DNA from: Candidatus Omnitrophota bacterium
GTDB lineage: Bacteria > Omnitrophota > Gorgyraeia > Aquiviventales > Aquiviventaceae
DNA length: 64,000 nucleotides
NCBI GenBank assembly: GCA_016180575.1
Contig: JACPAY010000002.1
Location: forward strand, 27,235 to 91,234
Direction of reading: 5' to 3'
Shown: one piece after another, positions 1,866 through 60,420 of the stretch
Numbering within the stretch: position 1 is the first letter of the stretch
Layout of the letters: each line of letters opens with the position of its first letter
Position numbers and translations under genes: made by a program
Notes under the pieces: generated by a model
The model's database searches: none
What the model was told of the DNA's origin: nothing
What the model saw: the letters and a program-made list of their open reading frames with translations, nothing else

Positions 1866-3086
1866 ATGACCCGCTCCATACCGTGGGCACCTCGCATCCA
1901 ATACGCGGCGGTGGTGGCGTTCGCCGCGGTCCTCCCGCTCGGGCAGGCGCCAGCCGAGATCACCCTGGTGATCGGCCTGGCGGCCTGGGTGTTCCGCGCC
2001 GTGCGGGAACGGCGCGGGTCCCAGCTGCTGAGGAATCCCCTCAGCGGGCTCCTGGTCCTCTGGTTCCTGGCGGCACTCGTCTCCATGCTGAACTCCGTTG
2101 ATCCGGCGGCGAGCCTGCACGGCCTGCGCAAGCTCCTGAAGGGGTTCGGCCTCTACTTCCTCGTCGTCGACACGGTCGGCTCCCGGGATGCCCTCCGCGG
2201 CGTCGTTGCCGGATCGCTGGCGGGCCTCAGTCTCGTCGTGGGAGACGGCCTGTGGCAGTGGGCCGCTGGCCGCGATCTCATCTACGGCCACGTCCCGGTC
2301 AACGAGTTGCCGACCGGCAAGACCATCCTGCGGTTGTCGGCGATGTTCGGCCACTCGGCGAGCCTGGCGATGTACCTGGTCAGTTGGGCTCCCCTGGCGA
2401 TCGCGGCCGGGCTGGCCGGGGGGCGGCGATGGCGGCGTTGGCTGTTCGGTCTGGGCGCGCTGGCCGCCGTGGTCCTCGTGTTCAGCCGGACCCGCGGGGG
2501 GATCCTTGGGTTTGCGTGCGCGCTCCCGCTCATGAGCTGGTGGCTGCGCAGCTGGATTCCCGCGGCGGTGGGGGTGGCGGCCGCGGCGCTGCAGGTCGCC
2601 ACGGTGCCGCCGGCGGTGGCCGAGTGGGCGGCGGCGATGCCGACGCTGCTGCATCAATTCACGGAGCCGGAGCGGCTCATGTATTGGCAGGCGGCGCTGC
2701 GGATGGTGCAGGCCCATCCGCTCATCGGCGTCGGGGTCAACACGTTCGTCAAGGCATATCCCTCCTATCGCGTCGCGGGCGACCCGTATGCGGCCCTGGG
2801 CCCCTATGCGCATAACCAGTACCTGCAGGTGGCGGCCGAGCTGGGGCTGGTCGGCCTTGCCGTATTCGCGGGGGTCCTGGTCCGGCTCGGTCTTGCGCTG
2901 CGCCGGGGCCTCGCCGCGCGGTCCGGGCACCCGTTCGAAGCGGCCGTCGCCGCGGGCGTGGGGGCGGGGCTCGTGGGCTACCTGATCCTCGGGGGCCTTG
3001 AGTCCTCGCTCTTCTACGGGCGGGGCTCGCTCATCTTCTGGACGCTGGCAGGACTGTTGGTTGCGGTCGAGCGGCGATACAAATGA
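1866..3086 (+). CDS. O-antigen ligase / Wzy family membrane protein
   Basis: 406 aa, multi-TM, with the motif GVGVNTFVKAYPSY...YAHNQYLQVAAELGLVGLAVF. Its stop TGA lies inside the family-A repeat. Confidence 0.75.
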   Translation: MTRSIPWAPRIQYAAVVAFAAVLPLGQAPAEITLVIGLAAWVFRAVRERRGSQLLRNPLSGLLVLWFLAALVSMLNSVDPAASLHGLRKLLKGFGLYFLVVDTVGSRDALRGVVAGSLAGLSLVVGDGLWQWAAGRDLIYGHVPVNELPTGKTILRLSAMFGHSASLAMYLVSWAPLAIAAGLAGGRRWRRWLFGLGALAAVVLVFSRTRGGILGFACALPLMSWWLRSWIPAAVGVAAAALQVATVPPAVAEWAAAMPTLLHQFTEPERLMYWQAALRMVQAHPLIGVGVNTFVKAYPSYRVAGDPYAALGPYAHNQYLQVAAELGLVGLAVFAGVLVRLGLALRRGLAARSGHPFEAAVAAGVGAGLVGYLILGGLESSLFYGRGSLIFWTLAGLLVAVERRYK

Positions 3087-3152
3087 GGAGTCCGGTTCCC
3101 GCTTTCCCATCGGAGAACTCCAGGAAACCGGGAACCGGACCCGGGACTATCG
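3080..3152 (+). repeat. Family-A palindromic element, copy 1 (caaATGAGGAGTCCGGTTCCC...GGGAACCGGACCCGGGAC)
   Basis: Four copies in the window: 3080, 6765 (short), 19270 and 31410. A nested inverted repeat is present, and copies 1 and 3 differ by a compensatory CCCG/CGGG versus CCCT/AGGG change. Confidence 0.8.
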
Positions 3153-4156
3153 GGGACTGTCCGCGTCTCCTGTTCATTCGGACTGATCGGCTCGGCGAAA
3201 CGCTCCTCGCCCTGCCGGCGGCGCTGGCGCTGCGCGCCGCGTCCCCCGGGGCGCACCTGACGCTGCTCGTGCAGCCTGGGCTCCAGCCGCTTCTGGCCGG
3301 CGTGCCGGGGATCGACGAGGTGCTGGCCTATGACGAGACCGCCCCGCCCCAATGGTGGCGGCGGGCGCTGCGCCTGGGGCGCGCGCTGCGGCCCAGGCGG
3401 TTTGACGCGGCGGTCATCGCCAACCCGAAGAAGGAGCTGCACCTGGCGGTGTGGCTGGCCGGCATCCCGGTGCGGGCGGGCTACGGCCGGAAGTGGGGCG
3501 GCCTGTTGACCCACCGGGTGCCGGACCGCAAAGCGCTTGGCGAGCGTCACGAAGTCGAGTATAATCTGAGGCTGGTCGAGGCGGTCCTCGGGCCGCTCGC
3601 CCCGGCGTCGGCTCCGACGGTGCGGCTGCCGCTCCGCGAGGAGGCGAAGGGCCGCGTCCTGCAGCGGCTGGCCCGCCACGGCGTGCAGGGGACCGACCCG
3701 TTCCTCGCGGTCCATCCGTGGACCTCGAACCCCGTCAAGCGATGGGCGTCCGCCCGCTACGGGGAGCTGGTCCGCGCGATGGCGCAGCGCCTTCCCGTCG
3801 TGGTCATCGGCGGCCCTGAAGCCGTGGGCTGGGCCCCAGACGTTGCTCCCGCCGGTCAGCCTCGCGTCGTGAACCTCGTGGGAGGCCTGTCGTTGAGCGA
3901 GCTGGCCGAGCTCCTGCGCGCTGCCCGGCTGCTGGTGTCGAACGACAGCGGGCCCGTCCATCTCGCGGCGGCGGTGGGGACGCCGACGGTGGTGCTCTTC
4001 GGCGGCTCGTCCCCGGCGGCCGGCCCGCGCCGCTGGGGACCCTGGGGGGATGGCCACACGGTGATCTGGAAAGGCTCGATGGAGGAGATCACGGTCGATG
4101 AAGTCGTCGCGGCGGCCCGCGACGTCCTGGACGCTCGCGATCCCCGCGCAGGATGA
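3083..4156 (+). CDS. ADP-heptose:LPS heptosyltransferase (GT9)
   Basis: Motifs LLFIRTDRLGETLL and NDSGPVHLAAAVGTPTVVLFG. No ATG, GTG or TTG lies between the repeat and the conserved N-terminus, so the ATG inside the family-A repeat (overlapping the upstream TGA) is the likely start. The alternative is a rare ATC or CTG near 3149-3170. Confidence 0.75.
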   Translation: MRSPVPAFPSENSRKPGTGPGTIGDCPRLLFIRTDRLGETLLALPAALALRAASPGAHLTLLVQPGLQPLLAGVPGIDEVLAYDETAPPQWWRRALRLGRALRPRRFDAAVIANPKKELHLAVWLAGIPVRAGYGRKWGGLLTHRVPDRKALGERHEVEYNLRLVEAVLGPLAPASAPTVRLPLREEAKGRVLQRLARHGVQGTDPFLAVHPWTSNPVKRWASARYGELVRAMAQRLPVVVIGGPEAVGWAPDVAPAGQPRVVNLVGGLSLSELAELLRAARLLVSNDSGPVHLAAAVGTPTVVLFGGSSPAAGPRRWGPWGDGHTVIWKGSMEEITVDEVVAAARDVLDARDPRAG

Positions 4157-5339: not shown

Positions 5340-5358
5340 GCGGCCTCGCCACCCCACA

Positions 5359-5523
5359 GCTGCGGGGCCTGGCAGGGTGGTGTCTCGCCGGACCGCTCGG
5401 CGTGCCCCACCGTGGCACGCCGTCGCTCGGCTTCCGGGGCTCGCTCGTCCCGCCTGCGGCGGGACACCATGGCCGCTCGCCCCGTCAGACGTCCGGCTCG
5501 ACATCCACCCTGCCACCCGCAGC
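5359..5523 (+). ncRNA. Candidate structured RNA or structured repeat, family E copy 1
   Basis: About 85 % identical to 49803..49972. The closing helix is GCUGCGGG/CCCGCAGC plus GGCAGGGUGG/CCACCCUGCC. Compensatory changes between the copies occur in three helices, so structure is conserved. Confidence 0.45.
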
Positions 5524-5673
5524 CACGCGGTGGCTCAATGGCCCGACGGGTGACGCGGAGCGAGCCCACCGCCCGCGCGCAGTCCCGCCATCGGCGGGAC
5601 GAGCACGGACGGTGGGGTCGCGCAGCGGCAGGACCCGTCGGGCGATCGAGCCAGGGCGGGGGGGAGCGAGTCA

Positions 5674-6771
5674 ATGAGCCCGGTGCCGTTCCTTGAGGTG
5701 GCGCCGTCCCCCGCGCTCCAGGGGGAGCTGGAGGCGGCGGTGCGCGGGGTCCTCGCGGGCGGGCAGTACATCCTCGGGGAGCGGGTGCGCGCGTTCGAAG
5801 AGGCGCTGGCCGCCCGGTGCGGCTGCCGCTTCGGCGTGGGCGTGAACTCGGGCACCGACGCGCTGGAGCTTGCCCTGCGCGCCTGCGGGATCGGGCCGGG
5901 CGATGAGGTGATCGTGCCCGCGTTCACCTTCATGGCCACCGCGCTCGCGGTGACCTGCGCCGGGGCGACGCCGGTCCTGGCGGATATCGACGAGGCGTCC
6001 TATGGCATCGACGTGGAGGACGCCGCCCGCCGCGTGAGCGCCAAGACGAAAGCCATCATCCCCGTCCACCTCTACGGCCAGCCCTGCGACCTGGACGGGG
6101 TGCTGCGCCTCGCGGAGCGCCGGCGCCTGTGCGTCATCGAGGACTGCGCGCAGGCGATCGGCGCCGCCTACCGCGGACGAGCGGTGGGCGGCTTCGGCGC
6201 GGCCGGGTGCTTCAGCTTCTACCCGACGAAGAACCTGGGCGCGGCCGGAGACGGCGGGGCGGTCGTCACCAACGACCCCGCGATCGCCGAGCGGCTGTCG
6301 CTGCTACGCCAATGCGGCACGCGCGACAAGGTGCGCTATGAGATGGTCGGGCGCAACAGCCGGCTGGACGAGCTGCAGGCGGCCATCCTCCTCGTCAAGC
6401 TCAAGTATCTGGACGGCTGGAATGAGGCCCGGCGGGCGCGGGCGGGGTGGTACCGCGCGGCATTCGAGCAGGAGCGGGTGGAGGGGGTCGGCCTGCCCCA
6501 GGAGCTCGCGGAGCGGCGCCACGTCTACAACGTGTTCACCGTGCGCGTGAGCGAGCGGGACCAGGTGCGGGCAGAGCTGGCGTCGGGGGGCATCGAGACC
6601 ATGGTGTACTATGCGCGCCCGCTGCACCTGGATTCGTTCTACGAGGGCGGCGCGGCCAAGCGGGGAGACCTGCCGCGGGCCGAGCAGGCCGCCCGCGAGG
6701 CGCTGGCGCTGCCGATGTATCCCGGGCTCAGCCGGGAAGCGATCGCGGCGGTCGTGCGCGCCTTCAAATGA
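5674..6771 (+). CDS. DegT/DnrJ/EryC1/StrS family sugar aminotransferase (PLP-dependent)
   Basis: 365 aa with motifs GQYILGERVRAFEE, FYPTKNLGAAGDGGAV and YGQP. Its stop TGA lies inside the short family-A copy. Confidence 0.85.
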   Translation: MSPVPFLEVAPSPALQGELEAAVRGVLAGGQYILGERVRAFEEALAARCGCRFGVGVNSGTDALELALRACGIGPGDEVIVPAFTFMATALAVTCAGATPVLADIDEASYGIDVEDAARRVSAKTKAIIPVHLYGQPCDLDGVLRLAERRRLCVIEDCAQAIGAAYRGRAVGGFGAAGCFSFYPTKNLGAAGDGGAVVTNDPAIAERLSLLRQCGTRDKVRYEMVGRNSRLDELQAAILLVKLKYLDGWNEARRARAGWYRAAFEQERVEGVGLPQELAERRHVYNVFTVRVSERDQVRAELASGGIETMVYYARPLHLDSFYEGGAAKRGDLPRAEQAAREALALPMYPGLSREAIAAVVRAFK

Positions 6772-6800
6772 GGAGTCCGGGAACCGGACCCGGGACAATC
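6765..6800 (+). repeat. Family-A element, truncated copy 2
   Basis: caaatgaggagtccgggaaccggacccgggacaat. The internal part of the full element is deleted, leaving the short hairpin GTCCGG-gaa-CCGGAC. Confidence 0.7.
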
Positions 6801-7151
6801 GTCCTTTCACTCGTCGAGCGCGGCTGGCAGGCGGCGCGGGAGTATTCGCTGGACGTGCAGCGGGAGGGCGGAGGCGTGGTCCATCTCGTGAAGGGGGCTC
6901 TCTCGCCGGCGGTCCACGCCATGATCGCCCCCCAGCCGCGCGTCCGCGTCGTGAGCGTCCGGCGCGCGCTGTTCTGGCCCCTCGCGTGGGCGTGGTGCGC
7001 CGGATTGCTCGCGGCGGCCAGGCTGCGCGGGGTGCTCGTGGACAACGAGCGGTCGCTGCGGCGCGTGCGGCGCTGGGTCGGCGGCCCGCGCGTGCGCCTC
7101 GTCCGGGTTGGGCCCGGAGGGCGGGGCTACGAGCTCGCCGGTGGCTCATGA
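6768..7151 (+). CDS. Hypothetical protein (127 aa) that initiates on the repeat ATG
   Basis: It starts at the ATG of the family-A copy, which overlaps the DegT stop as ATGA. It ends in an ATGA overlap with the next gene. No recognisable domain. Confidence 0.35.
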   Translation: MRSPGTGPGTIVLSLVERGWQAAREYSLDVQREGGGVVHLVKGALSPAVHAMIAPQPRVRVVSVRRALFWPLAWAWCAGLLAAARLRGVLVDNERSLRRVRRWVGGPRVRLVRVGPGGRGYELAGGS

Positions 7152-9147: not shown

Positions 9148-10263
9148 ATGCCAGTCTGCGATCTAGTCTTGATCAGTTGGAATCATCTCGAGCAGACGCG
9201 GCCGTGCCTGGAGACGCTCTTCCGGTCGACCCGGACGCCGTGCCGCCTCTTCATCGTGGACAACGGCAGCACACCTGCGGTGCGCGCGTTCCTCGCCGGG
9301 GTGAAGCCGCAGGGCGAGATCCGGGAGGTCGTGCTGCTGCAGAACGACTCCAATGAGGGGTTCCCCCGCGCCGTGAACCGCGGCATCCGCGCCTCCTCGG
9401 CGCCGTTCGTCTGCCTCCTCAACAACGACCTGCGGTTCGCCGCGGGGTGGCTGGAGGAGATGCTCGAGGTGGCGCGCGCCGGCCCCTCGATCGGCGCGGT
9501 CAACCCGACCAGCAACACGTTCGGCAATGTCCCTCCGGACGGCCTGCCGCTCGACGCCTACGCCGACCGCCTCCGGGCGCGTCACGGCCGGTACACGGAA
9601 GTCGGGATGTGCATCGGGTTCTGCATCCTGACGAAGCGGGAGGTGCTGGATCGGCTGGGGGGGCTCTCCGAGGAGGTCGAGCGGATCTTCTTCGAGGACG
9701 AGGATTTCTCCATCAGGGTCCAGCAGGCCGGGTTTCGGTGCGTCGTGGCGCATGCGGCGTACGTCTTTCACGCGGAGCATCAGACGGTGAAGAAGATGCC
9801 GGAGCGCGAGGCGCTCTTCGTGAGGAACCAGCGGTGGTGCCACGCGAAGTGGGGCCGGTGGGTCCGCATGGCCTGGCCGCGCTTCACGCCGCTCACCCCG
9901 GGCTCGGAGGAGCTGCGCCGGTGGCTGGAGGAGCTGCTGGGCTGGGCCAGGCGCCGGACCCACGTCTACGTCTACTGCCCCCTGCCGCCCCGGATGACGC
10001 GGGACGCGCTGTTCGGCTCCGTCGGCCTCGTCCCGCACGCGGACATCCGGTGGCATCCGGTGGCCGCCGGCTGGGCCCGCTGGGCGGCCGCCGGGCGCAT
10101 CCTGCGGCGGCGGAAGAAGCGGTTCGATATCATCGTGGCGCCGGACGAGCGGTGGCGGCGGGCGCTTGAGCGCCTGGCGTGGGTGCACCGCGCGCAGGTG
10201 GTCCCCGCCGCGCACGCCGAGGAACTGGAGGCGCAATGGGAACGGTCCCGCTCTCGGTTGTGA
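9148..10263 (+). CDS. GT2 glycosyltransferase
   Basis: Motifs LFIVDNGST and LLNNDLRFAAGWLEEM. Length 371 aa. Confidence 0.8.
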   Translation: MPVCDLVLISWNHLEQTRPCLETLFRSTRTPCRLFIVDNGSTPAVRAFLAGVKPQGEIREVVLLQNDSNEGFPRAVNRGIRASSAPFVCLLNNDLRFAAGWLEEMLEVARAGPSIGAVNPTSNTFGNVPPDGLPLDAYADRLRARHGRYTEVGMCIGFCILTKREVLDRLGGLSEEVERIFFEDEDFSIRVQQAGFRCVVAHAAYVFHAEHQTVKKMPEREALFVRNQRWCHAKWGRWVRMAWPRFTPLTPGSEELRRWLEELLGWARRRTHVYVYCPLPPRMTRDALFGSVGLVPHADIRWHPVAAGWARWAAAGRILRRRKKRFDIIVAPDERWRRALERLAWVHRAQVVPAAHAEELEAQWERSRSRL

Positions 10264-18456: not shown

Positions 18457-19554
18457 ATGCCTGAGCCGGTCCGTTTGGGCCTGATCGGCGCCGGGCGGTG
18501 GGGGCGCGTCCACCTCCGGACCCTCCTCTCGCTCGGGGACCGCGTCCGGCTCACGCACCTGTGCACCACCAAGCCGGCTGCGGCCGACCTCTTGCCGTAC
18601 CCGGTGAGCGTCGTGCCCGACTGGCGGCAGCTCCTCCGGGCGCCGTGCGATGCGCTGATCATCGCGACGCCTCCCGCGTACCATCCCGAGATGCTCGAGG
18701 CCTGCCTGGACGCCGCCAAACCGTGCCTGGTGGAGAAGCCGCTGTGCCTCGACGTCGCCACTGCCGAGCGGCTCCACGAGCGCATCCGGGCCTCAGGCGT
18801 CCCGGTGCTGGTCAACCACACCCACCTCTTCGCGCCGGCGTATCGCGCCCTGAAGCGGGCGGTGGCGGAGGGCGGGGAGCCGATCCGGATCCTCCTCTCG
18901 GAGGGGATGGGCTTCGGCCCGTTCCGGACCCACACCCCCACCCTCTGGGATTGGGGTCCGCATGACGTGAGCCTCTGCCTCGACCTCCTGGGGGAATCCC
19001 CGCGCGGCGTGGAGGCGCTGGGCGGCCCGCGCAGCCCGGACGGCGACCCGGAGCTGGTCAGCCTGCGCCTCGAGTTTCCGGGGGGCGCCTGCGCCTGGAT
19101 CCAGACGGGGCGGCTCGCCGCCAAGAAGCGGCGGAGCCTGGCGGTCATCACCAACAGCCGGCTCTATCTCCTCGACGACCTGGCGGCCGAGCCGCTGACG
19201 GTCGCTCCCATCCAGTTCTCAGAACGGTACACCGATGGCGTGCCGGAGCCGCCGGCCCCTGTGCCGCTACAAATGAGGAGTCCGGTTCCCTCTTTCCCTT
19301 CGGAACACTCGGGGAAACAGGGAACCGGACCCGGGACTGGCATGGCGACGATGGCCCATGTCCTGACCTATTTCCTGGACGGGCTGGCCGGAGGCGACCG
19401 CAGCCAGTTCGGGACCGGGCTTGCGCTGGAGGTGACCCGCGTGCTGGCCGCCTGCGAGCGGGCGCGCATCTCCCGGTATCAGATACCGGTTGAAGGAAGC
19501 CGCTCTTTCAGGCCGGTATCTGATACCGGAGAGGGACATGGCGCCGTTCCGTGA
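18457..19554 (+). CDS. Gfo/Idh/MocA-family oxidoreductase carrying an in-frame family-A element
   Basis: N-terminus RLGLIGAGRWGRVHL, and DALIIATPPAYH. The C-terminal third contains the repeat translated as QMRSPVPSFPSEHSGKQGTGPGT. Confidence 0.7.
   Translation: MPEPVRLGLIGAGRWGRVHLRTLLSLGDRVRLTHLCTTKPAAADLLPYPVSVVPDWRQLLRAPCDALIIATPPAYHPEMLEACLDAAKPCLVEKPLCLDVATAERLHERIRASGVPVLVNHTHLFAPAYRALKRAVAEGGEPIRILLSEGMGFGPFRTHTPTLWDWGPHDVSLCLDLLGESPRGVEALGGPRSPDGDPELVSLRLEFPGGACAWIQTGRLAAKKRRSLAVITNSRLYLLDDLAAEPLTVAPIQFSERYTDGVPEPPAPVPLQMRSPVPSFPSEHSGKQGTGPGTGMATMAHVLTYFLDGLAGGDRSQFGTGLALEVTRVLAACERARISRYQIPVEGSRSFRPVSDTGEGHGAVP
19270..19340 (+). repeat. Family-A element copy 3 (inside a CDS, in-frame)
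   Basis: caaatgaggagtccggttccctctttcccttcggaacactcggggaaacagggaaccggacccgggactgg. Confidence 0.8.
19473..19528. repeat. Family-C REPIN-like element (CCGGTATCAGATACCGG ... CCGGTATCTGATACCGG)
   Basis: Two self-palindromic 17-mers in inverted orientation separated by a 22-nt spacer. It overlaps the 3' end of the oxidoreductase and the 5' region of the methyltransferase. Confidence 0.8.
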
Positions 19555-21950: not shown

Positions 21951-23093
21951 ATCCGCATCCTCGTCACCTACGTCACCGCCGGCGCGGGCCATCGCCGGGC
22001 CGCCGAAGCGGTCGCGCAGGCGGCCGGCGCCCAGTACCCCGACGCGGACATCCGCTGCGTGGACGCGCTCGACTACACCTCGCGGCGGTTCCGCGCGTTC
22101 TACGGGGCCACCTACATCTTCCTCGTCCGGCATGCGCCATGGCTGTGGCGGGCGAGCTACGCCCTGCTGGACTGGGGGCCGGTGTACCGCCTCATCCAGC
22201 CCTTCCGCCGGCGGTGGAACCTCTGGATCTGCCGGCCGCTGACGGCATGGCTGCGGGAGTTCCAGCCCGACGTGATCGTCACGACGCATTTCCTGCCCGC
22301 CGACGTCTGCGGCGCCGGGAAGGCCGCCGGCTGGCTCACCAGCGCGCTGGTCGTCGTGGTGACGGACCTCTTTCCGCACCGCTTCTGGATCGCCCCGGAG
22401 GCGGAGGCGTTCGTCATCAGCACCGCTGAGGGGCGGGAGGTGCTGACGCGGCGGGGGATGGCCCCTGACCGGATCCACATGCAGGGCATCCCCATCGCGC
22501 GCGCCTTCAACTCGGCCATCGGCGACCGTGCCGTGCTGTATGAGCGGCTTGCGCTGGACCCCGGCCGCCTGACGGTGCTGGTGACGAGCGGCGGCACGAC
22601 GGTGGGACAGTTCGAGCGCGTGGTGCACTCGCTTGCGGAGCTGGAGGTCGCACTGCCGCAGCGGCTGCAGCTGCTCGTGGTCTGCGGGGAAGACGGCCGG
22701 GCCTGCCGCCGGCTGGCCGAGCGGGCGGGAGCCCTCGCGATGCCGATCCGGGTCTTCGCGTTCATCGACCACATGGCCGAGCTGATGGCGGCGAGCGACC
22801 TGATCGTCACGAAGGCGGGCGGCCTCACGGTGAGCGAGGCGCTGGGCCGCGGCCTGCCGATTGTCCTCTACCATGTGATCCCGGGGCAGGAGCGGATGAA
22901 CGCGCACTACATCGCCCTGCACGGGGCGGGGCTCATCGCGAGGCGCCCCCGCGCCGTCGCGCAGACGGTGCGGCGGCTCGCGGAGGATCCTGAGCTGCTG
23001 GCGCGGATGCGGGCGGCGGCGAGGGCGCTTTCCCGTCCGGACGCCGCAGCGCAGATCGTGTCGCAGGCGGTGCAGCCGCTCGTGCGCCGATGA
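21951..23093 (+). CDS. MGDG-synthase-like glycosyltransferase (GT28, diacylglycerol glycosyltransferase family)
   Basis: N-terminus IRILVTYVTAGAGHRRAAEAV and C-terminal motif KAGGLTVSEAL. No ATG, GTG or TTG lies in-frame between the upstream stop (21918-20) and the conserved N-terminus. Confidence 0.6.
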   Translation: MRILVTYVTAGAGHRRAAEAVAQAAGAQYPDADIRCVDALDYTSRRFRAFYGATYIFLVRHAPWLWRASYALLDWGPVYRLIQPFRRRWNLWICRPLTAWLREFQPDVIVTTHFLPADVCGAGKAAGWLTSALVVVVTDLFPHRFWIAPEAEAFVISTAEGREVLTRRGMAPDRIHMQGIPIARAFNSAIGDRAVLYERLALDPGRLTVLVTSGGTTVGQFERVVHSLAELEVALPQRLQLLVVCGEDGRACRRLAERAGALAMPIRVFAFIDHMAELMAASDLIVTKAGGLTVSEALGRGLPIVLYHVIPGQERMNAHYIALHGAGLIARRPRAVAQTVRRLAEDPELLARMRAAARALSRPDAAAQIVSQAVQPLVRR

Positions 23094-23785
23094 GCCGCGT
23101 CCTGGCCTCCCCCCTGGTCCGAGCGGTGCAGCAGCATCTTGAGGGGCTGCGCGCGCTCGGGGTCACCGCGGTGCCGGCGTCCCCCGTGGGCGCAGCCCCT
23201 CCGACTGGGGCAAAGGGCGGCGCTTCAAAGGAGGAGCGGTTGAGCCGGCTCGCCCGCGAGGTCGAGCGCTGCCGGCGCTGCACGCTCTACCGCACGCGCA
23301 CCCACGCCGTCGTCAGCGACGGCTCGCCGCATGCGCGCCTGGTCTTCATCGGCGAGGCGCCCGGACGCGACGAGGATCTCCAGGGCAAGCCGTTCGTCGG
23401 CGCGGCCGGCAAGCTCCTCACGAAGATGATCGAGGCGATGGGCCTCGCGCGCGAGGCGGTGTACATCTGCAACGTCCTCAAGGACCGGCCCCCCGGCAAC
23501 CGGACGCCGCTGCCGGAGGAGGTCGAGGCCTGCCTGCCGTTCCTGCAGGAGCAGCTCGCCATCATCCGGCCGGCGGTCATCTGCACGCTGGGGGCGGTCG
23601 CGGCCAAGGCGCTCCTGGGGCCGCATGTCGCCATCACCAAGGTCCGCGGCGAGGTCAGGGAGTATCAGGGGGTTCCGCTGGTGCCCACGTTCCATCCGGC
23701 GTACCTCCTGCGCAATCCGGACGCCAAGCGATACGCCTGGGCCGACCTCAAGAAAGTAAAGCGGCTGCTTGAGAGAGAGCAATGA
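23090..23785 (+). CDS. Uracil-DNA glycosylase, family 4
   Basis: Motifs CRRC and LVFIGEAPGRDEDLQGKPFVGAAGKLL. Confidence 0.85.
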   Translation: MSRVLASPLVRAVQQHLEGLRALGVTAVPASPVGAAPPTGAKGGASKEERLSRLAREVERCRRCTLYRTRTHAVVSDGSPHARLVFIGEAPGRDEDLQGKPFVGAAGKLLTKMIEAMGLAREAVYICNVLKDRPPGNRTPLPEEVEACLPFLQEQLAIIRPAVICTLGAVAAKALLGPHVAITKVRGEVREYQGVPLVPTFHPAYLLRNPDAKRYAWADLKKVKRLLEREQ

Positions 23786-25986
23786 TGGATCCATCGAAAT
23801 CCCGTGTGGCCGCGGGTGACGCGGAGCCGGGGACCCCGTCGCCTGCCCGCAGGCCGAGGCCGAGGACAGCCGACGGGGTGGCGGCGCGGCAGGACCCGCG
23901 GCCGACGATTGCTGAGGTCGCCTTCAATCTGCCGCTCGACAAGTCGTTCCACTACCTCATCCCGGAGGCGATGCGCCAGACGCTCGCGCCCGGGATGCGG
24001 GTGGCGGCCCCGTTCGGCCCTCGCGAGCGCATCGGCTTCGTCCTCAAGGTTGTGGCCGAGAGCCCCGTGAAGGAGCTGAAGGAGATCCGCCGCGTCCTGG
24101 ACCCGCGGCCGGTGATCGGCGAGGAGCAGTGGGCGCTGGCGTCGTGGCTGTCCACCTACTACTGCTGCAGCATGGGCGAGGCGCTGGCCACGATGGTGCC
24201 TGGCGGCCTGCGCCTCCGAGCGGGGGCGGGTCCTGCCGCCTCGGGCACTCCGCCTGCCGTCCTCGTCCCTGACGGGACTGCGGCCGGCGGCGGAGGCCTC
24301 CCCTCGGCGTCACCCGTCCCCACGGGTGTTGTGATGTTGACCGCGCATCAGCGGCAGGCGCTGCCGCCCATCCTCGAGGCGCTGGAGGCGAAACGCTTCG
24401 CCTCCATCCTCCTCTTCGGGGTCACCGGGTCAGGGAAGACCGAGCTCTACCTGCAGGCGATCGACCGCGCGCTGCGCCAGGGACGCTCCGCCATCTGCCT
24501 CATCCCGGAGATCGCGCTCACGCCGCAGACGACCGACCGCTTCGTCGAGCGCTTCGGCGGCGGCGTCGCGGTCTGGCACAGCCGCATGAGCGCACGAGCT
24601 CGCTCGCGCGACTGGATGCGGATGAGCGACGGGGCGTGCCGGATCGTGGTCGGGGCCCGCTCGGCGGTCTTCGCCCCGGTGCAGCGCCTGGGGCTCATCA
24701 TCATCGATGAAGAGCACGAGCCGACCTACAAGCAGGAGGATGCCCCGCGCTACCACGCCCGCGAGGTCGCCATGGCCCGCGCGCGGCTCGCCGGCGCCGC
24801 CGTCGTGCTGGGGAGCGCCACGCCGTCCGTGGAGAGCTACTATGCCGCCGCGCGGCGGGCGGGGGGTGTCGTGACGCTGCCGGAGCGGATCGCGGGACGG
24901 GGGCTGCCGGCGGCGGAGGTCATCGACATGCGGGAGGAGATGAGCAGCCGCCGCCGCTTCGGCCCTCTCTCAGCCCGCCTGGAGCGGGCGCTCGCGCAGA
25001 CCGTGGAGCGCGGGGAGCAGGCCATGCTCCTGCTCAACCGGCGCGGGTTCGCGCGGGTGGCGCAGTGCAAAACGTGCGGGGCGGTCGAGCGGTGCGCGCG
25101 CTGCTCCGTCCCGCTCGTCTACCACGCCGGCCGCCGGGAGCTGGTCTGCCACTATTGCAACTTCCATGAGCCGCCGCGGGAGCTCTGCCGCCAGTGCCGG
25201 AAGGGCTACCTGAGCTTTCGGGGGAGCGGGACGGAGCGGGTCGAGTCCGAGCTGCACCGGCTCTTTCCCGTGGCGTCCATCGCCCGGATGGACCGGGACA
25301 CCACCGCGCGCCGCGGCAGCCACCGCGAGCTCTACGAGGCGGTCAAGACGCGCCAGGTGAACCTCCTCGTCGGCACGCAGATGATCGCCAAGGGGTTCGA
25401 TTTCCCGCAGGTGACGCTCGTCGGCGTGGTGTCGGCGGACACGGCGCTCAACCTGCCGGATTTCCGGGCCGGCGAGCGGACGTTCGACCTCCTGACGCAG
25501 ATGGCGGGACGGGCGGGGCGGGGGGAGCGGCCGGGGCGGGTGCTGATCCAGACTTTCTGCCCGGGCCACTACGCGATCCAGGCCGCCAAGGCGCACGACT
25601 ACCTGGGATTCTACGCGCAGGAGATCCGGATGCGGCGAGCGCTGCGGCTGCCGCCCTTCGTGCACCTCATCGAGCTGACGGTGCTCGGCTCCTCGCTGCC
25701 GCGCGTGGAGGAGGCGGCGCAGTGGCTCGCGGGCCGCCTGCGGCGGGCGCTCGCCCGCCGCCTGCCTGCCGCGCCGGGGAAAGGCGCGACTCGCGCGGCG
25801 CAGGCAGGCGCCGTCCTGCTCGGGCCGGCGCCGCACCGCATCCCGCGGCTGCGCCGGGCCTACCGGGTGCACCTCCTCCTCAAGGCCCGGTCGGTCGAGG
25901 CGGTGACGCCGATCGTGCGCCGGGTCCTCGCGCCGGGGCGGAAGGCGAAGGGCCTCCCCGTGATCGTCAACGTCGACCCACTGTGA
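23782..25986 (+). CDS. priA: Primosomal protein N' (PriA helicase)
   Basis: Contains the 3' DNA-binding domain NLPLDKSFHYLIP, Walker A GVTGSGKT, Cys-rich zinc motifs (CKTCG, CARC, CHYC, CRQC) and a C-terminal region. Its ATG overlaps the UDG stop as ATGATG, which implies an N-terminal extension of about 38 aa read through the family-B repeat. Confidence 0.85.
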   Translation: MMDPSKSRVAAGDAEPGTPSPARRPRPRTADGVAARQDPRPTIAEVAFNLPLDKSFHYLIPEAMRQTLAPGMRVAAPFGPRERIGFVLKVVAESPVKELKEIRRVLDPRPVIGEEQWALASWLSTYYCCSMGEALATMVPGGLRLRAGAGPAASGTPPAVLVPDGTAAGGGGLPSASPVPTGVVMLTAHQRQALPPILEALEAKRFASILLFGVTGSGKTELYLQAIDRALRQGRSAICLIPEIALTPQTTDRFVERFGGGVAVWHSRMSARARSRDWMRMSDGACRIVVGARSAVFAPVQRLGLIIIDEEHEPTYKQEDAPRYHAREVAMARARLAGAAVVLGSATPSVESYYAAARRAGGVVTLPERIAGRGLPAAEVIDMREEMSSRRRFGPLSARLERALAQTVERGEQAMLLLNRRGFARVAQCKTCGAVERCARCSVPLVYHAGRRELVCHYCNFHEPPRELCRQCRKGYLSFRGSGTERVESELHRLFPVASIARMDRDTTARRGSHRELYEAVKTRQVNLLVGTQMIAKGFDFPQVTLVGVVSADTALNLPDFRAGERTFDLLTQMAGRAGRGERPGRVLIQTFCPGHYAIQAAKAHDYLGFYAQEIRMRRALRLPPFVHLIELTVLGSSLPRVEEAAQWLAGRLRRALARRLPAAPGKGATRAAQAGAVLLGPAPHRIPRLRRAYRVHLLLKARSVEAVTPIVRRVLAPGRKAKGLPVIVNVDPL
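23806..23905 (+). repeat. Family-B palindromic element copy 1 (about 100 nt, ends GGCCGCGGGT...ACCCGCGGCC)
   Basis: Four copies: 23806, 35505, 49537 and 56788 (inverted). The internal pairing is CCCCGTCG/CGACGGGG. A conserved left-flank TCGAA motif precedes every copy. Confidence 0.8.
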
Positions 25987-30330: not shown

Positions 30331-32661
<2,331 letters not shown>

Positions 32662-32669
<8 letters not shown>

Positions 32670-33850: not shown

Positions 33851-35470
33851 GTGCGCCCGCGCAAGTGGTTGGTGGCCGGCGCGATCGCCGCGCTCGCCAT
33901 CGGGATCGCCCTTCCGGTTCCCGTGACGGCGCAGTCCCAGCCGGCGTCCGGGGACGCGCTCGTCGTCAGCTCCATCGGGGACGCCAGCCGCCTCCTGCCT
34001 CTCCTCGCCACCGACAGCGCCTCGGGCGACATCGTCGGGCTGCTGTTCAACGGCCTCCTGAAGTACAACGAGCGGCTGGAGATCGTGGGCGACCTCGCCG
34101 AATCGTGGACCGTGAGTCCGGACGGCCTCACGATCACCTTCGTCCTGCGCCCCGGCATCCGCTGGCATGACGGGGCGCCGGTCACGGCGGAGGACGTCCG
34201 GTTCACCTACGAGAAGCTCATCGATCCAGCCGTCCTGACCCCCTACTCGAGCAGCTACCAGCTCGTGGAGGCCGTGGAGGTGCTCGATCCTCGGACCATC
34301 CGCGTGCGCTACCGCGAGCCGTTCGCGCCGGCGCTGGAGAGCTGGATGATGGGCATCATCCCGAAGCACCTGCTCGAGGGGGAGGACCTCAACACGACGC
34401 CGTTCCTGCGCCGGCCCGTGGGGATGGGGCCCTATCGCTTCAGGCGATGGAGCACCGGCGAGCTGATCGAGCTTGCGGCCAACCCGGACTACTTCGAGCA
34501 CCGGCCGCACATCGACCGCTACCTCTACCGCATCATCCCGGACCAGGCCACGGCGTTCCTGGAGCTGCTCACCGGCCAGGTGGACCTGGCGGGGCTTTCG
34601 CCGCTGCAGTACCGCCGGCAGACCGACACCCCGTACATCCGGCGGTCCTACCGGAAGTTCCGCTATCCCTCCTTCGGCTTCACGTACGTCGGCTACAACC
34701 TGCAAGACGCGCGGTTTGCGGACCCGCGGGTGCGGCAGGCGTTCAACCTGGCGATCGACAAGCAATCGCTCATCGACGGGGTGCTCTTCGGCCTCGGCGC
34801 TGCCGCCACCGGGCCGTACCCGCAGGAATCCTGGGCCTACGACCCGTCGATCCAGCCGCCGCCGCCGGATCGGGAGGCGGCCCGGGCGCTGCTGGCGGAG
34901 GCCGGGTGGCGCGACCAGGACGGCGACGGCGTGCTCGACAAGGACGGGCGGCCGTTCCAGTTCACCCTCATCACCAACCAGGGCAACGAGGTGCGCCGGC
35001 AGGTCGCGGAGCTTGTCCAGCAGCAGCTCCGGGCGCTCGGGGTGGACGTGAAGATCCGGATCATCGAGTGGAGCTCGTTCGTCCACGAGTTCATTGACAA
35101 GCGCCGCTTCGAGGCGGTCCTGCTCGGCTGGAGCCTCTCGCGCGACCCGGACCTCTATGACCTCTTCCACTCCTCGAAGACCCGGGAGGGCGAGTACAAC
35201 TTCGTGGGCTACGCGAGCCCCGAGGTGGACCGGCTCCTTGAGCGGGGCCGGCGCGTGTTCGACCAGGCCGAGCGGCAGCGCATCTACCGCGAGGTCCACC
35301 GCCGCCTGGCGGAGGACCAGCCCTACACGTTCCTGTTCGTCCCGGATGCGCTGCCCATCCTCCACGCGCGGTTCCGCAACGTCGCCGCCACCCCCATCGG
35401 CATCGCCTACAACCTCATCGACTGGCACGTGCCGCCGGCGGAGCAGCGCTACCGCCGGATGACGCCATGA
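33851..35470 (+). CDS. ABC transporter substrate-binding protein, family 5 (Opp/Dpp peptide-binding)
   Basis: 539 aa. GTG start preceded by GGAGG. Signal-peptide-like N-terminus and SBP_bac_5-type length and composition. Confidence 0.75.
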   Translation: MRPRKWLVAGAIAALAIGIALPVPVTAQSQPASGDALVVSSIGDASRLLPLLATDSASGDIVGLLFNGLLKYNERLEIVGDLAESWTVSPDGLTITFVLRPGIRWHDGAPVTAEDVRFTYEKLIDPAVLTPYSSSYQLVEAVEVLDPRTIRVRYREPFAPALESWMMGIIPKHLLEGEDLNTTPFLRRPVGMGPYRFRRWSTGELIELAANPDYFEHRPHIDRYLYRIIPDQATAFLELLTGQVDLAGLSPLQYRRQTDTPYIRRSYRKFRYPSFGFTYVGYNLQDARFADPRVRQAFNLAIDKQSLIDGVLFGLGAAATGPYPQESWAYDPSIQPPPPDREAARALLAEAGWRDQDGDGVLDKDGRPFQFTLITNQGNEVRRQVAELVQQQLRALGVDVKIRIIEWSSFVHEFIDKRRFEAVLLGWSLSRDPDLYDLFHSSKTREGEYNFVGYASPEVDRLLERGRRVFDQAERQRIYREVHRRLAEDQPYTFLFVPDALPILHARFRNVAATPIGIAYNLIDWHVPPAEQRYRRMTP

Positions 35471-35504
35471 AAAAGTGCCAGGCTGCTCCATCGAAGACTC
35501 CCGT

Positions 35505-35606
35505 GCGGCCGCGGGTGACGCGGAGCCGGGGACCCCGTCGCCTGCCCGCAGGCCGACCAGGCCGAGGACAGCCGACGGGGTGGCGGCGCGGCAGGACCCG
35601 CGGCCA
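35505..35606 (+). repeat. Family-B element copy 2 (in the 5' leader of the permease gene)
   Basis: Near-identical to copy 1. Confidence 0.8.
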
Positions 35607-35621
35607 AACCGGGGGGCCGAG

Positions 35622-36473
35622 ATGATCGGCTATCTCGCCCGGCGGCTGCTCGGCCTGATCCCCGTCCTGCTCGGCATCACCCTGATCTCGTTCGGCGTCA
35701 TGAAGCTCGCCCCCGGCAAGCCGACCGACGCCGCGGTGCAGTTCAACCCCAAGGCCTCCTTCGAGGCGCGCGAGCGGATGGAGAAGCTCCTGGGCCTCGA
35801 TCAGCCGCTCCATCGCCAGTACCTCCGGTGGCTGGGCCGCGTGGTCCGCTTCGACTTCGAGGTCCGGCCCGGAGGGCTCTTCGACCGGCTGACCACGGTG
35901 CTCGTCTTCATCGGCTACTCCGCGCCGGGATTCTGGCTCGCGCTCCTGGCGATCGGCTGGTTCGGCGTGACGCTGCGCTGGTTCCCGGTCTCCGGCCTCC
36001 ACGCGATCGACCACGAGGCGATGGGGCTTCTCCGGCGCGGCCTGGACGTCGCCTGGCACCTCGCCCTGCCGGTGGGGGTCATGACGTTCGTCGGCCTCGC
36101 CGGGCTCTCGCGGTACGCCCGCTCCGGGATGATCGAGGTCCTGCGGCAGGACTACATCCGCACGGCCCGCGCCAAGGGGCTGCCCGAGCGCCGGGTGCTG
36201 TTCCGCCACGGCCTGCGCAACGCCCTGCTGCCGATCATCACGATCCTGGGGCTCTCGCTTCCCGACCTCATCGCGGGCAGCGTCGTCATGGAGACGGTCT
36301 TCTCCATCCCCGGGATGGGGCGGCTCTTCTACGACGCGGTGATGGCGCGCGACCAGAACGTGGTCATGGCGCTGGTGACCATCGGGGCGCTGCTGACGCT
36401 GCTGGGCAACCTGCTCGCGGACCTGGCGTACGCCTACGCCGACCCGCGCATCCGCGTCAGGGGCGGCAGATGA
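35622..36473 (+). CDS. ABC peptide transporter permease (OppB/DppB-like)
   Basis: MIGYLARRLLGLIPVLLGITLISF is a typical N-terminus. Confidence 0.8.
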   Translation: MIGYLARRLLGLIPVLLGITLISFGVMKLAPGKPTDAAVQFNPKASFEARERMEKLLGLDQPLHRQYLRWLGRVVRFDFEVRPGGLFDRLTTVLVFIGYSAPGFWLALLAIGWFGVTLRWFPVSGLHAIDHEAMGLLRRGLDVAWHLALPVGVMTFVGLAGLSRYARSGMIEVLRQDYIRTARAKGLPERRVLFRHGLRNALLPIITILGLSLPDLIAGSVVMETVFSIPGMGRLFYDAVMARDQNVVMALVTIGALLTLLGNLLADLAYAYADPRIRVRGGR

Positions 36474-45997: not shown

Positions 45998-47112
45998 AGA
46001 GACGCTATAACGTCGCCGTCGTCGGCGCCACGGGCGCCGTCGGCACGGAGATGCTCCGGGTGCTTGCGGAGCGCCGGTTCCCCGTGAACCGGCTCCGGGT
46101 CCTGGCGTCCGCCCGCTCGGCGGGCCGGCGCGTGCCGTTCAACGGCGCCACGCACGCGGTGGAGGAACTGCGCGGGCGGTCATTCGACGGGATCGACTTA
46201 GCGCTCTTCAGCGCCGGGGCGACGCGGAGCCTCGAGTTTGCGCCCGAGGCGGTCCGGCGGGGCGCGGTGGTCGTCGACAACTCCAGCGCCTTCCGCATGG
46301 CGCCGAACGTGCCGCTCATCGTGCCCGAGGTCAACCCCGAGGCGCTGTCGGGTCACCGCGGGCTCATCGCCAACCCCAACTGCTCCACCATCATCATGCT
46401 GGTGCCATTGGCCCCGCTGCACCGGGCAGCAGCCCTGCGGCGCATCGTCGTGGCGACCTACCAGTCGGTGTCGGGCGCGGGCGCCAAAGCCATGTGGCAA
46501 CTCCTCAACGAGACAAAAAAGGCCCTGAGACATTACGAGGCTAGGGGCTCAGGGCTAGGGGCTCAGGGCAAAAGCCCCAAAGGGTTTTCAATGAAGCAAC
46601 TCCTTGCTCGGCCCATAGCCCATAGCCCACAGCCCAGGGTCTTGCCCGCGCAGATCGCCTTCAACGTCATCCCGCAGGTGGACGTCTTCCTCGACAACCG
46701 CTCCACCAGGGAAGAGTTGAAGATGGTGAACGAGACCCGCAAGATCCTCGGCGAACCGCGCCTGCCGGTCTCCGCCACGTGCGTCCGCGTGCCGGTCTTC
46801 GTCTCGCATTCGGAGGCGGTGTGGATCGAGACCGAGCGGCCGCTCTCACGCGCGCGGGCGGCCGCGCTCCTGCGCCGCGCGCCGGGGGTGAAGCTGATCG
46901 ACGACCCCGGCCGGGGGGCCTACCCGCTGCCGATCCAGGCAGCCGGGCAGGACGACGTGCTCGTCGGCCGCCTCCGGCGGGATGAGTCGGTGGCGCACGG
47001 GCTCGCCCTCTGGATCAGCGGCGATAACCTCCGCAAAGGGGCGGCGACCAACGCCGTCCAGATCGCCGAGCTACTTACCGGTATCAGATACCGAACTCGC
47101 TTTGGTATCTGA
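45994..47112 (+). CDS. asd: Aspartate-semialdehyde dehydrogenase, with an in-frame repeat insertion and a repeat-encoded C-terminus
   Basis: Motifs VAVVGATGAVG and NPNCSTI (active-site Cys). IAFNVIPQVD. Stop inside the family-C arm. Confidence 0.85.
   Translation: MKRRYNVAVVGATGAVGTEMLRVLAERRFPVNRLRVLASARSAGRRVPFNGATHAVEELRGRSFDGIDLALFSAGATRSLEFAPEAVRRGAVVVDNSSAFRMAPNVPLIVPEVNPEALSGHRGLIANPNCSTIIMLVPLAPLHRAAALRRIVVATYQSVSGAGAKAMWQLLNETKKALRHYEARGSGLGAQGKSPKGFSMKQLLARPIAHSPQPRVLPAQIAFNVIPQVDVFLDNRSTREELKMVNETRKILGEPRLPVSATCVRVPVFVSHSEAVWIETERPLSRARAAALLRRAPGVKLIDDPGRGAYPLPIQAAGQDDVLVGRLRRDESVAHGLALWISGDNLRKGAATNAVQIAELLTGIRYRTRFGI
46537..46640. repeat. Palindromic heptamer-array element inserted in-frame in asd (GGGGCTCAGGGCTAGGGGCTCAGGGC ... 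GCCCATAGCCCATAGCCCACAGCCC)
   Basis: The arms are imperfect reverse complements built from the 7-mer GGGCT[C/A][A/G]. The centre is AT-richer. It adds about 25 aa (ARGSGLGAQGKSPKGFSMKQLLARPIAHSPQPR) between conserved Asd blocks. Confidence 0.65.
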
Positions 47113-47118
47113 TACCGG
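47078..47118. repeat. Family-C REPIN-like element (CCGGTATCAGATACC ... GGTATCTGATACCGG)
   Basis: It encodes the last 12 aa and the stop of asd (TGIRYRTRFGI*). Confidence 0.8.
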
Positions 47119-49450: not shown

Positions 49451-49518
49451 ATGGTGTCAGACACCATATTCCTGACCGGGGCAGCGAGGCGACCGAGCTG
49501 AACATGGTGTCTGACGGC
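49451..49518. repeat. Family-C variant arms (ATGGTGTCAGACACCAT ... CATGGTGTCTGAC)
   Basis: GTGTCAGACAC is a covarying version of GGTATCAGATACC around the same TCAGA/TCTGA core. Confidence 0.7.
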
Positions 49519-49536
49519 TCTGTCGAACACCTCCGT

Positions 49537-49637
49537 GTGGCCGCGGGTGACGCGGAGCCGGGGCCCCCGCCGCCTGCCCGCAGGCCGACGAGGCCGAGGA
49601 CAGCCGGCGGGGTGGCGGCGCGGCAGGACCCGCGGCT
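49537..49637 (+). repeat. Family-B element copy 3
   Basis: gtgtggccgcgggtgacgcggagccggggcccccgccgcctgcccgcaggccgacgaggccgaggacagccggcggggtggcggcgcggcaggacccgcggc. Confidence 0.8.
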
Positions 49638-49656
49638 CAGCGAAGTATTCGATAGA

Positions 49657-49676
49657 GCAGTGTCTGACACCATATT
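49657..49676. repeat. Family-C variant arm (AGCAGTGTCTGACACCATAT)
   Basis: Third GTGTCTGACAC arm of the cluster. Family-B copy 3 sits between arms. Confidence 0.6.
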
Positions 49677-49802: not shown

Positions 49803-49972
49803 GGTCCCGCTAGCTGCGGGTCCTGGCAGGATGGTGTCTCGCCGGACCGCTCGGCCCGCCCCACCGTGGCGGGCCTTCGCTCGGCTTCAGGGGTTCGCTC
49901 GTCCCTCCGGTTCACCGAGGGGACACCATGGCCGCTCACCCCTTCAGACGTCCGGCTCGACATCCATCCTGC
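49803..49972 (+). ncRNA. Candidate structured RNA or structured repeat, family E copy 2
   Basis: Homologous to 5359..5523. The covarying helices are GGCCCGCC/GGCGGGCC (versus GGCGTGCC/GGCACGCC), CCCTC/GAGGG (versus CCCGCC/GGCGGG) and GGCAGGATGG/CCATCCTGCC (versus GGCAGGGTGG/CCACCCTGCC). Confidence 0.45.
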
Positions 49973-50127
49973 CACCCGCAGCCAACAAGGACCCATGCCC
50001 GCCCGCACGACCGCGAGCCCCGGCATCGCAAGTCCCCTGTCACCCGCCAACCTTTTTCGCTTGACAGCGGAACCTGGAGGCTCCATAATTTCCAACAAAT
50101 GGTTGGTAAGGCATTGGGGGGGGAAGG

Positions 50128-56755: not shown

Positions 56756-56787
56756 AGCCGCGTCTGTTCCGTCGAACACCCCGCCTG

Positions 56788-56886: not shown

Positions 56887-56892
56887 CGACGT

Positions 56893-60417: not shown

Positions 60418-60420
60418 TAC
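60384..60420. repeat. Family-C REPIN-like element (TTGGTATCAGATACCAA ... GGTATCTGATAC)
   Basis: It encodes LGIRYQSGHGI* of argH. Confidence 0.8.

Follow-up and report, generated by a model that had tools for sequence, protein, structure and literature searches.

It is already known that small selfish repeats can insert in frame into bacterial genes. Rickettsia palindromic elements (RPEs; Ogata et al. [quoted passage not shown] Repetitive extragenic palindromes (REPs) inside open reading frames (ORFs) are often located at N-termini, where some of them are possibly extragenic (PMC3733652), and mycobacterial interspersed repetitive units (MIRUs) enter at start codons, where genes are coupled by -4 overlaps (PMC12548453). 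Here we describe a hairpin repeat that is new in Omnitrophota, termed family B, in a 64,000-nt stretch (the window) of contig JACPAY010000002.1 from a Candidatus Omnitrophica/Omnitrophota metagenome-assembled genome (MAG), whose PriA, ArgF, and permease products match NCBI proteins. One copy of this repeat separates priA, the gene of the replication-restart helicase, from the coupled ATG at which it started; most likely, it is translated as an N-terminal leader of PriA.

The element seems to work like RPEs and MIRUs, as an analogue rather than a tested member of either group. Like RPEs, it is inserted in frame in intact genes, namely in the PriA linker, in a cysteine desulfurase of another MAG, and after the start codons of priA and argF, and the encoded peptides occupy loops or termini (the N-terminus and linker in PriA, the N-terminus in ArgF, and a loop in the cysteine desulfurase). 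Unlike RPEs, it belongs to another phylum, is GC-rich, is intragenic in a minority of copies, and, in the subfamily of this genome, has clear terminal inverted repeats (TIRs) and 9-bp duplications; the likeness is one of mode of action, with no sequence relation apparent, nor one to be expected given the GC content and the phylum. Like MIRUs (PMC12548453), it is a short mobile repeat at operon start codons. In MIRUs, the ORF of the repeat is translationally coupled by -4 overlaps, and downstream expression thereby survives. Copy c2 has the exact MIRU arrangement ATGA…ATGA, while the copies at priA (c1) and argF (c4) have only the upstream ATGA overlap. Unlike in MIRUs, the ORFs of c1 and c4 are fused in frame to the downstream gene, the repeats are long hairpins rather than tandem arrays, and the sequences are unrelated.

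Insertions behind the start codons of priA and argF

The features of the two junctions are as follows.

23090-23785, plus strand: ORF of uracil-DNA glycosylase (UDG, gene udg), from the ORF list, with a Pfam UDG match on the identical product in Logan contigs.
23782-23784, plus strand: ancestral priA start codon ATG, retained where stop and start overlap by 4 nt; another ATG stands at 23785.
23782-25986, plus strand: priA ORF of 734 codons, open throughout, with all PriA domains.
23785-23907, plus strand: copy c1, 123 nt (41 codons) inserted between ATG and ATT-GCT-GAG, delimited by empty-site comparison.
56756-56905, minus strand: copy c4, an insertion of 150 nt (50 codons, stop-free in the argF frame) that immediately follows the ATGA in which the argD stop and the argF start overlap.

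The UDG stop TGA (23783-23785) overlaps the priA ATG at 23782 within caATGATGg, in agreement with the original prediction, which was made from the sequence without database searches. It was also right that no canonical start follows the repeat before the conserved N-terminus of PriA: no in-frame ATG, GTG, or TTG was found between the repeat end (23903) and IAEVAFNLPLD, which begins with the ATT at 23908. Among 119 PriA orthologues, 61 begin with M-IAEV; a further 25 are longer by 1-4 residues, and 28 by 5-35 residues. An empty site was found in a 75%-identical orthologue (L007/L008), where UDG and PriA overlap by 4 nt in gATGATTGCC (overlap sequence ...ctgggATGATTGCCGAGGTTGCC); the orthologous junction in L007 reads gGATGATTGCCGAGGTT, and that of the 75% orthologue is also given as ...gGATGATTGCCGAGG. 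In the window, the junction consists of gcaATG, 123 nt of insertion, and ATTGCTGAGGTCGCC (downstream side ATTGCTGAGG). The insertion length is a multiple of three, and there are zero stops in the priA frame. Its boundary is ambiguous by the dinucleotide AT, so that 23787-23909 fits equally well. Copy c1, which scored 77 bits with the covariance model, is composed of a left arm (GGATCCATCGAAATCCCGTGT), a core hairpin (23808-23903), and a right arm that is nearly gone (GACG only). UDG-PriA synteny is kept in relatives. The filled junction on the UDG side was identical in five independent Logan assemblies, each of which breaks inside the repeat, as expected for a multi-copy element.

At argF, c4 did what c1 did to priA, in the opposite orientation: it is inserted after the argF ATGA and keeps the frame. 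Two argF orthologues (92% and 90%; P0121 and P0122) start with MSARHFLTV and overlap argD by 4 nt (gcgGATGAGCGCGCGCCACTTC). At the site of the insertion the orthologue has ATGAGCGCG, and the argF empty sites in L045 and L046 read gGATGAGCGCGCGCCAC. The corresponding junction in the window is ccgATGA followed by 150 nt and, in frame, by GCGCGCGCCACTTC (downstream side GCGCGCGCCAC). Copy c4 (56788-56888) is 94% complementary to c1; its core hairpin (56788-56883) is inverted relative to c1-c3, both arms are present, and one arm contains an in-frame TTG at 56893. The original prediction had placed this copy upstream of argF with a reverse-complemented core. Its opposite orientation is confirmed, but it lies inside the argF ORF, after the ATG. 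The NCBI annotation of ArgF is the 360-aa form including the leader (MBI2104183.1), and that of PriA likewise retains the leader, in a 733-aa form from 23785 (MBI2104153.1). Filled and empty sites are now seen for two genes.

Translation of the PriA leader is likely because the empty site in relatives is ATG|ATT and the insertion keeps the frame without a stop. It is further supported because the ancestral ATG is the only start in a coupling context, because the copies within the PriA linker (c6) and within the cysteine desulfurase are unavoidably translated, and because the argF architecture is alike. This comparative evidence strengthens the repeat-encoded leader of the original prediction, which had put its length at about 38 residues rather than 41 codons. 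Stop/start overlaps (-4 ATGA/GTGA or -1 TGATG) are present at ~18 of 30 co-directional junctions in the window. Since overlaps are so common here and the orthologous, ancestral priA junction has no Shine-Dalgarno (SD) sequence, termination-reinitiation at ATGA overlaps (PMC6728339, PMC10666635) is the expected mode of coupling. With this ATGA overlap still intact, ribosomes that leave udg would, on the simplest reading, restart at 23782/23785. A ribosome would end udg, reinitiate at the ancestral priA ATG, and read through the hairpin to yield PriA with a leader of 41-42 residues. This leader, whose production we infer from the sequence, is most likely a Pro/Arg/Ala-rich, predicted disordered segment that includes the stretch DPSKSRVAAGDAEPGTPSPAR. 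In an AlphaFold model of the 734-aa PriA (mean predicted local distance difference test score, pLDDT, 83.9; pTM 0.85), pLDDT fell below 50 only at residues 1-~40 and ~150-180, both repeat-encoded, and in a few short loops. The priA ORF is intact over its 734 codons and has a third-position GC content (GC3) of 0.92. The 35-aa leader peptide, too short a query to be informative, had 0 phmmer matches among 1.8 billion representatives.

Several points weigh against a translated leader left by a mobile repeat. The leader is predicted from the sequence, and the in-frame GTG at 23878 in c1 and TTG at 56893 in c4 may each be a new start, a reason for which PMC3733652 cautions that many repeats classed as "intragenic" at N-termini may be extragenic. 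The hairpin of -73 kcal/mol directly 3' of the start codon may impede translation. Only one MAG contig covers the priA side of the junction, and no independent contig spanning it was found. The position of two of the six copies exactly after a start codon may reflect targeting instead of survivorship. Clean target duplications are present only at copy c3 and at a metagenomic copy (L049), and are degraded at c1 and c4; with the right arm of c1 missing, the site history of c1 and c4 is partly reconstructed. In addition, no cognate transposase or parent insertion sequence (IS) was found among the neighbours of 35 loci.

The most serious alternative, which we nevertheless consider unlikely, is that the repeat is not part of PriA and that initiation has moved to a start in or near the element, either the GTG at 23878 or the near-cognate ATT at 23908. 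The ORF from ATG 23782 would then be merely a coupled leader frame, or unused. The absence of a canonical start downstream of the repeat does not speak to this, as in-frame GTGs are present at 23806 and 23878 within c1 itself, a point that the original prediction had not covered. The second of these is the rival start site.

23878-23880, plus strand: in-frame GTG in c1, with GAGGA 11 nt upstream; the product would have a 10-aa extension, M-AARQDPRPTIAEV.

A conserved AGGA likewise stands 13 nt before ATT 23908, and three SD-like motifs (GGAG, GAGGA, and AGGA) are conserved on the family's top strand. In three other loci (L010, L018, and L038), the gene ATG lies 5-9 nt past the closing stem, which places the conserved AGGA 9-13 nt before it. 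The TTG at 56893 offers argF a possible start too, and the caveat raised for N-terminal REPs in PMC3733652 points the same way. However, the alternative starts sit within the stem of the -73 kcal/mol hairpin, the ATT is the ancestral codon 2 and not a start, and the ancestral priA, without an SD sequence, depended on the ATGA overlap that is still intact. Translation of the element is tolerated in c6 and in the cysteine desulfurase (L012). A role of the element as SD donor to downstream genes was rejected, since copies adjoin gene starts in antisense as often as in sense orientation (~13 vs ~9 copies).

Start-codon positions and overlapping genes

Copy c1 entered the 4-nt udg/priA overlap immediately after the ancestral ATG, at a junction that offers no intergenic landing site. 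Because overlapping genes leave no neutral site, surviving insertions must be in frame and stop-free after the ATG; survivorship, not targeting, would explain the start-codon position. The two junctions may therefore be a clean natural case in which an ATGA overlap leaves in-frame leaders as the survivors, following the logic of MIRUs and RPEs in an uncultivated phylum.

A broader and quite unlikely reading is that hairpin repeats of Omnitrophota target, or are retained at, coupled ATGA junctions as "coupling leaders". The core would then define a new REP-like superfamily with a protein partner, an unrelated repeat of the window (family A) would be likewise involved, and the reinitiating ribosome would melt the hairpin and set the expression of the distal gene (priA, argF, pgk, or the GT9 gene). 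If true, operon expression would be tuned by a layer that repeats supply, and N-terminal extensions would arise from them steadily.

Family A (CAAATGAGGAGTCCGGTTCCC…GGGAACCGGACCCGGGACTATCG) was observed at 3063-3152, 6748-6801, 19253-19342, and 31393-31482. It contains the upstream TGA overlapping an ATG, and in three of the four copies the frame continues into the downstream gene without a later canonical start: from gap into pgk (ORF 31413-32669), from ORF 1866-3086 into the GT9 gene (3083-4156), and in the short copy (6765). The leader of 19 residues is identical in the two long copies, and the copy at 19270 is followed by an ATG of its own. The annotated GT9 protein (MBI2104134.1) has a long N-terminus. 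At pgk and the GT9 gene, the family-A architecture of ATGA plus read-through is that of c1 and c4, and gives independent support for read-through leaders. For gene calling in MAGs, this suggests that the long N-termini of the PriA, ArgF, and GT9 proteins are repeat-derived, and neither ancestral domains nor simple mis-calls.

Other lineages add to this support. Relatives carry other hairpin repeats at two of the junctions occupied in the window, those between UDG and PriA and between the solute-binding-protein (SBP) and permease genes. In L051, a different heptamer-hairpin repeat (GAGTGGCGAGTGGCGAGG…CACTCACCACTCACCACTCACC, 9902-10048) lies between UDG and ...ATC-ATT-GCG-GAA and yields an annotated N-terminal extension, the PriA starting with MAVSDHSPLTTHHSPIIAEV. 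In L050 (2410-2500), a (GTGCGGA)x3…(TCCGCAT)x3 hairpin stands between the SBP and permease genes. The UDG/PriA junction of L009 has a 39-nt insert after TGATG. An 81% relative (L006) has a two-gene cassette between UDG and PriA (1707-2698), encoding a 124-aa protein without a Pfam match and an M78 peptidase-like protein (faint match); its UDG was called jointly with an upstream MGDG-synthase-like gene as one 546-aa product.

Copies, fold, and distribution of family B

Besides c1 and c4, four copies were found in the window.

35499-35614, plus strand: copy c2, in the spacer between the SBP gene and the ABC permease gene.
49516-49659, plus strand: copy c3, full-length (144 nt), with TIRs GGCTCTGTCGAAC… / …TTCGATAGAGCA and 9-bp direct repeats GTGTCTGAC at 49507-49515 and 49660-49668.
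5534-5651, plus strand: copy c5, of a divergent subfamily, intergenic, covariance-model score 84 bits.
24213-24329, minus strand: copy c6, degenerate, in frame inside priA, covariance-model score 45.1 bits (E 7.8e-8, window scan).

The motif GGCCGCGGGT has 8 occurrences in the window compared to 1.44 expected, a number that none of 100 shuffles reached. Four copies are 90-94% identical to one another: c1 (23803-23903), c2 (35502-35605), and c3 (49534-49640) on the plus strand, and c4 (56785-56888) on the minus strand. The covariance model added c5 and c6, each ~67% identical to c1-c4, which brings the density to 6 copies in 64 kb. The stem of c5 (GCCCGACGGGT/ACCCGTCGGGC) shows many compensatory changes.

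Copy c6, which had gone unmentioned in the original prediction, still has both conserved cores recognisable in the alignment. It encodes most of the hypervariable PriA linker (~aa 145-183, ..RAGAGPAASGTPPAVLVPDGTAAGGGGLPSASPVPTG..) between the N-terminal DNA-binding domain and the helicase core; this linker has 40 aa here vs 20-33 aa in orthologues, and a pLDDT of 41-48. It is an older copy that is translated within the interdomain linker, and an essential replication-restart helicase would then tolerate two repeat-encoded disordered segments. In L012 (MAG contig JAGVGS010000160), a copy lies in frame inside a cysteine desulfurase. Residues 6-249 and 289-409 of this protein align with PDB 9wep_A, and the ~38-aa insert between them coincides with the repeat. 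Of the six reading frames through the core, all but the GGG-TGA frame lack stops in 31-39 of 40 copies, so an insertion of a multiple of three usually leaves a gene open. Three of the six copies in the window are intragenic, compared to 1 of 35 in other MAGs.

Copy c2 represents another solution, with a 52-codon ORF (35467-35625) whose starting ATGA overlaps the upstream stop and whose final ATGA overlaps the permease start. By a rough estimate, such a -4/-4 arrangement would arise by accident in ~1% of cases. We rejected the reading of ATGA…ATGA as a target duplication of 4 bp, since in a relative this spacer is also present and holds a different hairpin. The permease gene itself (35622-36473) encodes 283 aa and is without 43 residues, a membrane-spanning stretch, that are found in all 325-327-aa orthologues; this loss is either an in-frame deletion or an assembly collapse.

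The distribution of the family was surveyed by an exact-pattern scan of one genome per species, in which the pattern required both cores; copy numbers are thus lower bounds, and core invariance is partly by construction. At least 35 loci were found in at least 15 MAGs (10 labelled Omnitrophota, 4 Planctomycetia/Planctomycetales, and 1 Patescibacteria), with up to 5 exact-pattern copies per MAG within the fetched loci. The hairpin may serve as a marker across these MAGs and as a candidate lead to the mobilising enzyme. Between and around the 5' core (GGGTGACGCGGAGC) and the 3' core (GCGCAGCGGCAGGACCC), the closing and inner stems vary freely yet stay complementary across copies. In the consensus structure, 96.3% of cells were paired vs 83.8% after shuffling, and 80 double-sided changes were counted vs 27.7 after shuffling (0/500 shuffles reached the observed value in either case; slid controls gave at most 23). 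In low-GC genomes, the cores are kept around a wholly different AT-rich inner hairpin. The predicted folding energies were -73.2 kcal/mol for c1 (z -4.0), -93.2 for the full-length c3 (z -5.1), and -85.1 for c5 (z -7.8). A metagenome scan specific to the subfamily of this genome recovered only 3 loci, a scan of viral contigs gave 0 matches, and a literature search on the core sequences returned nothing relevant. A variant of ~150 nt in L048 (480-632) has an enlarged apical region with an extra G-rich loop insert.

The strong covariation in the closing and inner stems would fit an element that serves mainly as a structured functional RNA (cis-regulator, mRNA-stabilising or terminator-like hairpin, or small RNA gene) and is not selfish DNA, its junction position reflecting regulation of the downstream genes. 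The conserved asymmetric internal loops (5' GGGUGACGCGGAGC / 3' GCGCAGCGGCAGGACCC), which persist in low-GC genomes with a different inner hairpin, would also fit such a role, as would the observations that some half of the copies have a start codon no more than 60 nt away and that c2 lies in a classic SBP-permease spacer. REP hairpins in such spacers stabilise the upstream mRNA (malE-malF, hisJ-hisQ). We regard this explanation as improbable. The strand-specific folding expected of an RNA was not seen: over 40 copies, the top and bottom strands averaged -66.7 and -65.1 kcal/mol, a mean difference of only 1.7 kcal/mol, and the top strand folded better in 24. Orientation relative to flanking genes is mixed, both directions relative to transcription being about equally frequent. 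Furthermore, copies lie inside coding sequence, near-identical copies have multiplied within genomes, two copies have 9-bp target duplications, and the invariance of the two cores owes something to the search pattern. At the gathering threshold, Rfam 15 matched only a tRNA in the whole window, and permissive Rfam scans of c1 and a low-GC copy gave only chance miRNA-like hairpin matches far below threshold. A k-turn in the conserved internal loop was tried by hand and rejected, as the register did not fit (G•G where A•G is required).

A misjoin of the MAG at the repeat, or a decaying priA pseudogene, is a very improbable source of the filled sites. Short-read assemblies do break within the repeat, exact-product look-ups recorded no independent contig encoding the 733/734-aa PriA or the ArgF product, and the adjacent permease has its 43-aa internal deletion; against this stand the conserved UDG-PriA synteny, the same UDG-side junction in five assemblies, and an intact priA ORF with high GC3 and a confident predicted fold. 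A misjoin would keep the frame one time in three, yet it is kept at both priA and argF.

Mobility and symmetry of the element

The best explanation for family B is a small non-autonomous mobile palindromic repeat, MITE-like in character. In the subfamily of this genome, the hairpin (~96 nt) is set between longer arms, with inverted terminal repeats TGCTCTGTCGAA…. The metagenomic copy L049 has the ends TGCTCTGTCGAAC… / …TTCGACAGAGCA, nearly perfect in both arms, and 9-bp direct repeats GCGCGTCGT, while the remnants of a target duplication are only AT at c1 and only A at c4. Other subfamilies have different outer arms of 6-38 bp, and no target duplication is evident in the short-arm ones. Judged by general transposon knowledge, TIRs together with 9-bp duplications would mark a MITE that a DDE-type transposase has mobilised. 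Among the neighbours of 35 loci, no protein recurred except generic ABC ATPases; no RAYT/Y1 or other transposase gene was found beside ~45 copies, and the TIR motif was found nowhere but at the copies themselves, in a search that did not extend to whole genomes.

Bacterial MITEs with hairpin potential (ERIC, Correia/NEMIS, and Coxiella QMITE; PMC3184786, PMC5896051, PMC10969869) have 100-170 bp, TIRs, target duplications, no transposase coding capacity, positions at operon junctions in both orientations, and occasional in-frame fusions. Family B shares the TIRs, the junction positions in both orientations, and the occasional fusions, has clean target duplications at two copies, and is small (100-150 nt), multi-copy, and without a transposase ORF. 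Unlike these MITEs, it has no identified parent IS with the same ends, and its core is conserved across distant genomes while the arms differ by subfamily. In this it resembles a decayed IS less than a hairpin module under conservation. REPs and REPINs (mobilised by RAYT transposases, GTAG- or CGTC-tagged; PMC3733652, PMC2817692, PMC3116915) are also GC-rich palindromes with a conserved non-palindromic part and co-varying stems, and they too occur in transcribed spacers such as SBP-permease and sometimes in ORFs, often at N-termini. Unlike REPs, which have 20-40 bp and an unpaired terminal tag, the element forms one ~96-nt hairpin whose internal loops are conserved. Membership in REP/REPIN was rejected on size, tag, and RAYT association; the CGTC that occurs in GCGTCACCC is neither terminal nor an unpaired tag.

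The orientation of c4 had led the original prediction to two alternatives, an ancestral symmetric element or an invertible core. As it had noted, c3 (49522-49531) and c4 (56771-56780) both carry gtcgaacacc on the window-left side. This flank motif is not one-sided, being present in inverted, degenerate form on the other side of c3 (49645-49658; arms GCTCTGTCGAACAC / GCTCTATCGAATAC), as gtttgcaacagcgc on the other side of c4 (56892-56905; arms GTTCCGTCGAACAC / GCGCTGTTGCAAAC), and on both sides of L049 (GCTCTGTCGAACACC / GCTCTGTCGAAACCC). The right arm is gone in c1 and degraded in c2. Copy c4 is the whole symmetric element in the opposite orientation, and no inversion is needed because every full-length copy examined (c3, c4, and L049) has the motif on both sides, which is what the original prediction had named as evidence for symmetry. 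That the core between GGCCGCGGGT and ACCCGCGGCC is flipped by recombination at inverted ends is scarcely credible: the exact 10-mer does lie 5' of the core in c3 and 3' of it, in element orientation, in c4, but it belongs to the inverted terminal repeat on both sides, symmetric arms decay independently so that which one keeps the 10-mer is a coin toss, and no recombinase gene recurs near the copies.

Other repeats were observed around c3 and c5. A 17-bp palindrome, ATGGTGTCAGACACCAT, lies at 49452-49468, and the flanks of c3 (49504-49515 and 49669-49673) rebuild a second copy of it (ATGGTGTCTGAC|ACCAT), which indicates that c3 inserted into the palindrome. Similar GGTATCAGATACC palindromes are located at 47081-47116, 60385-60420, and 19475-19487. 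A third repeat of ~170 nt, with inverted ends GCTGCGGG.CCTGGCAGG.TGG … CCA.CCTGCCACCCGCAGC, has copies of 90-95% identity at 5358-5525 and 49812-49984, each adjoining a family-B copy (c5 and c3, respectively). A 91-nt tRNA gene (50725-50815; Rfam 57.8 bits) is located ~1 kb downstream of the repeat-rich region at 49.4-50.0 kb.

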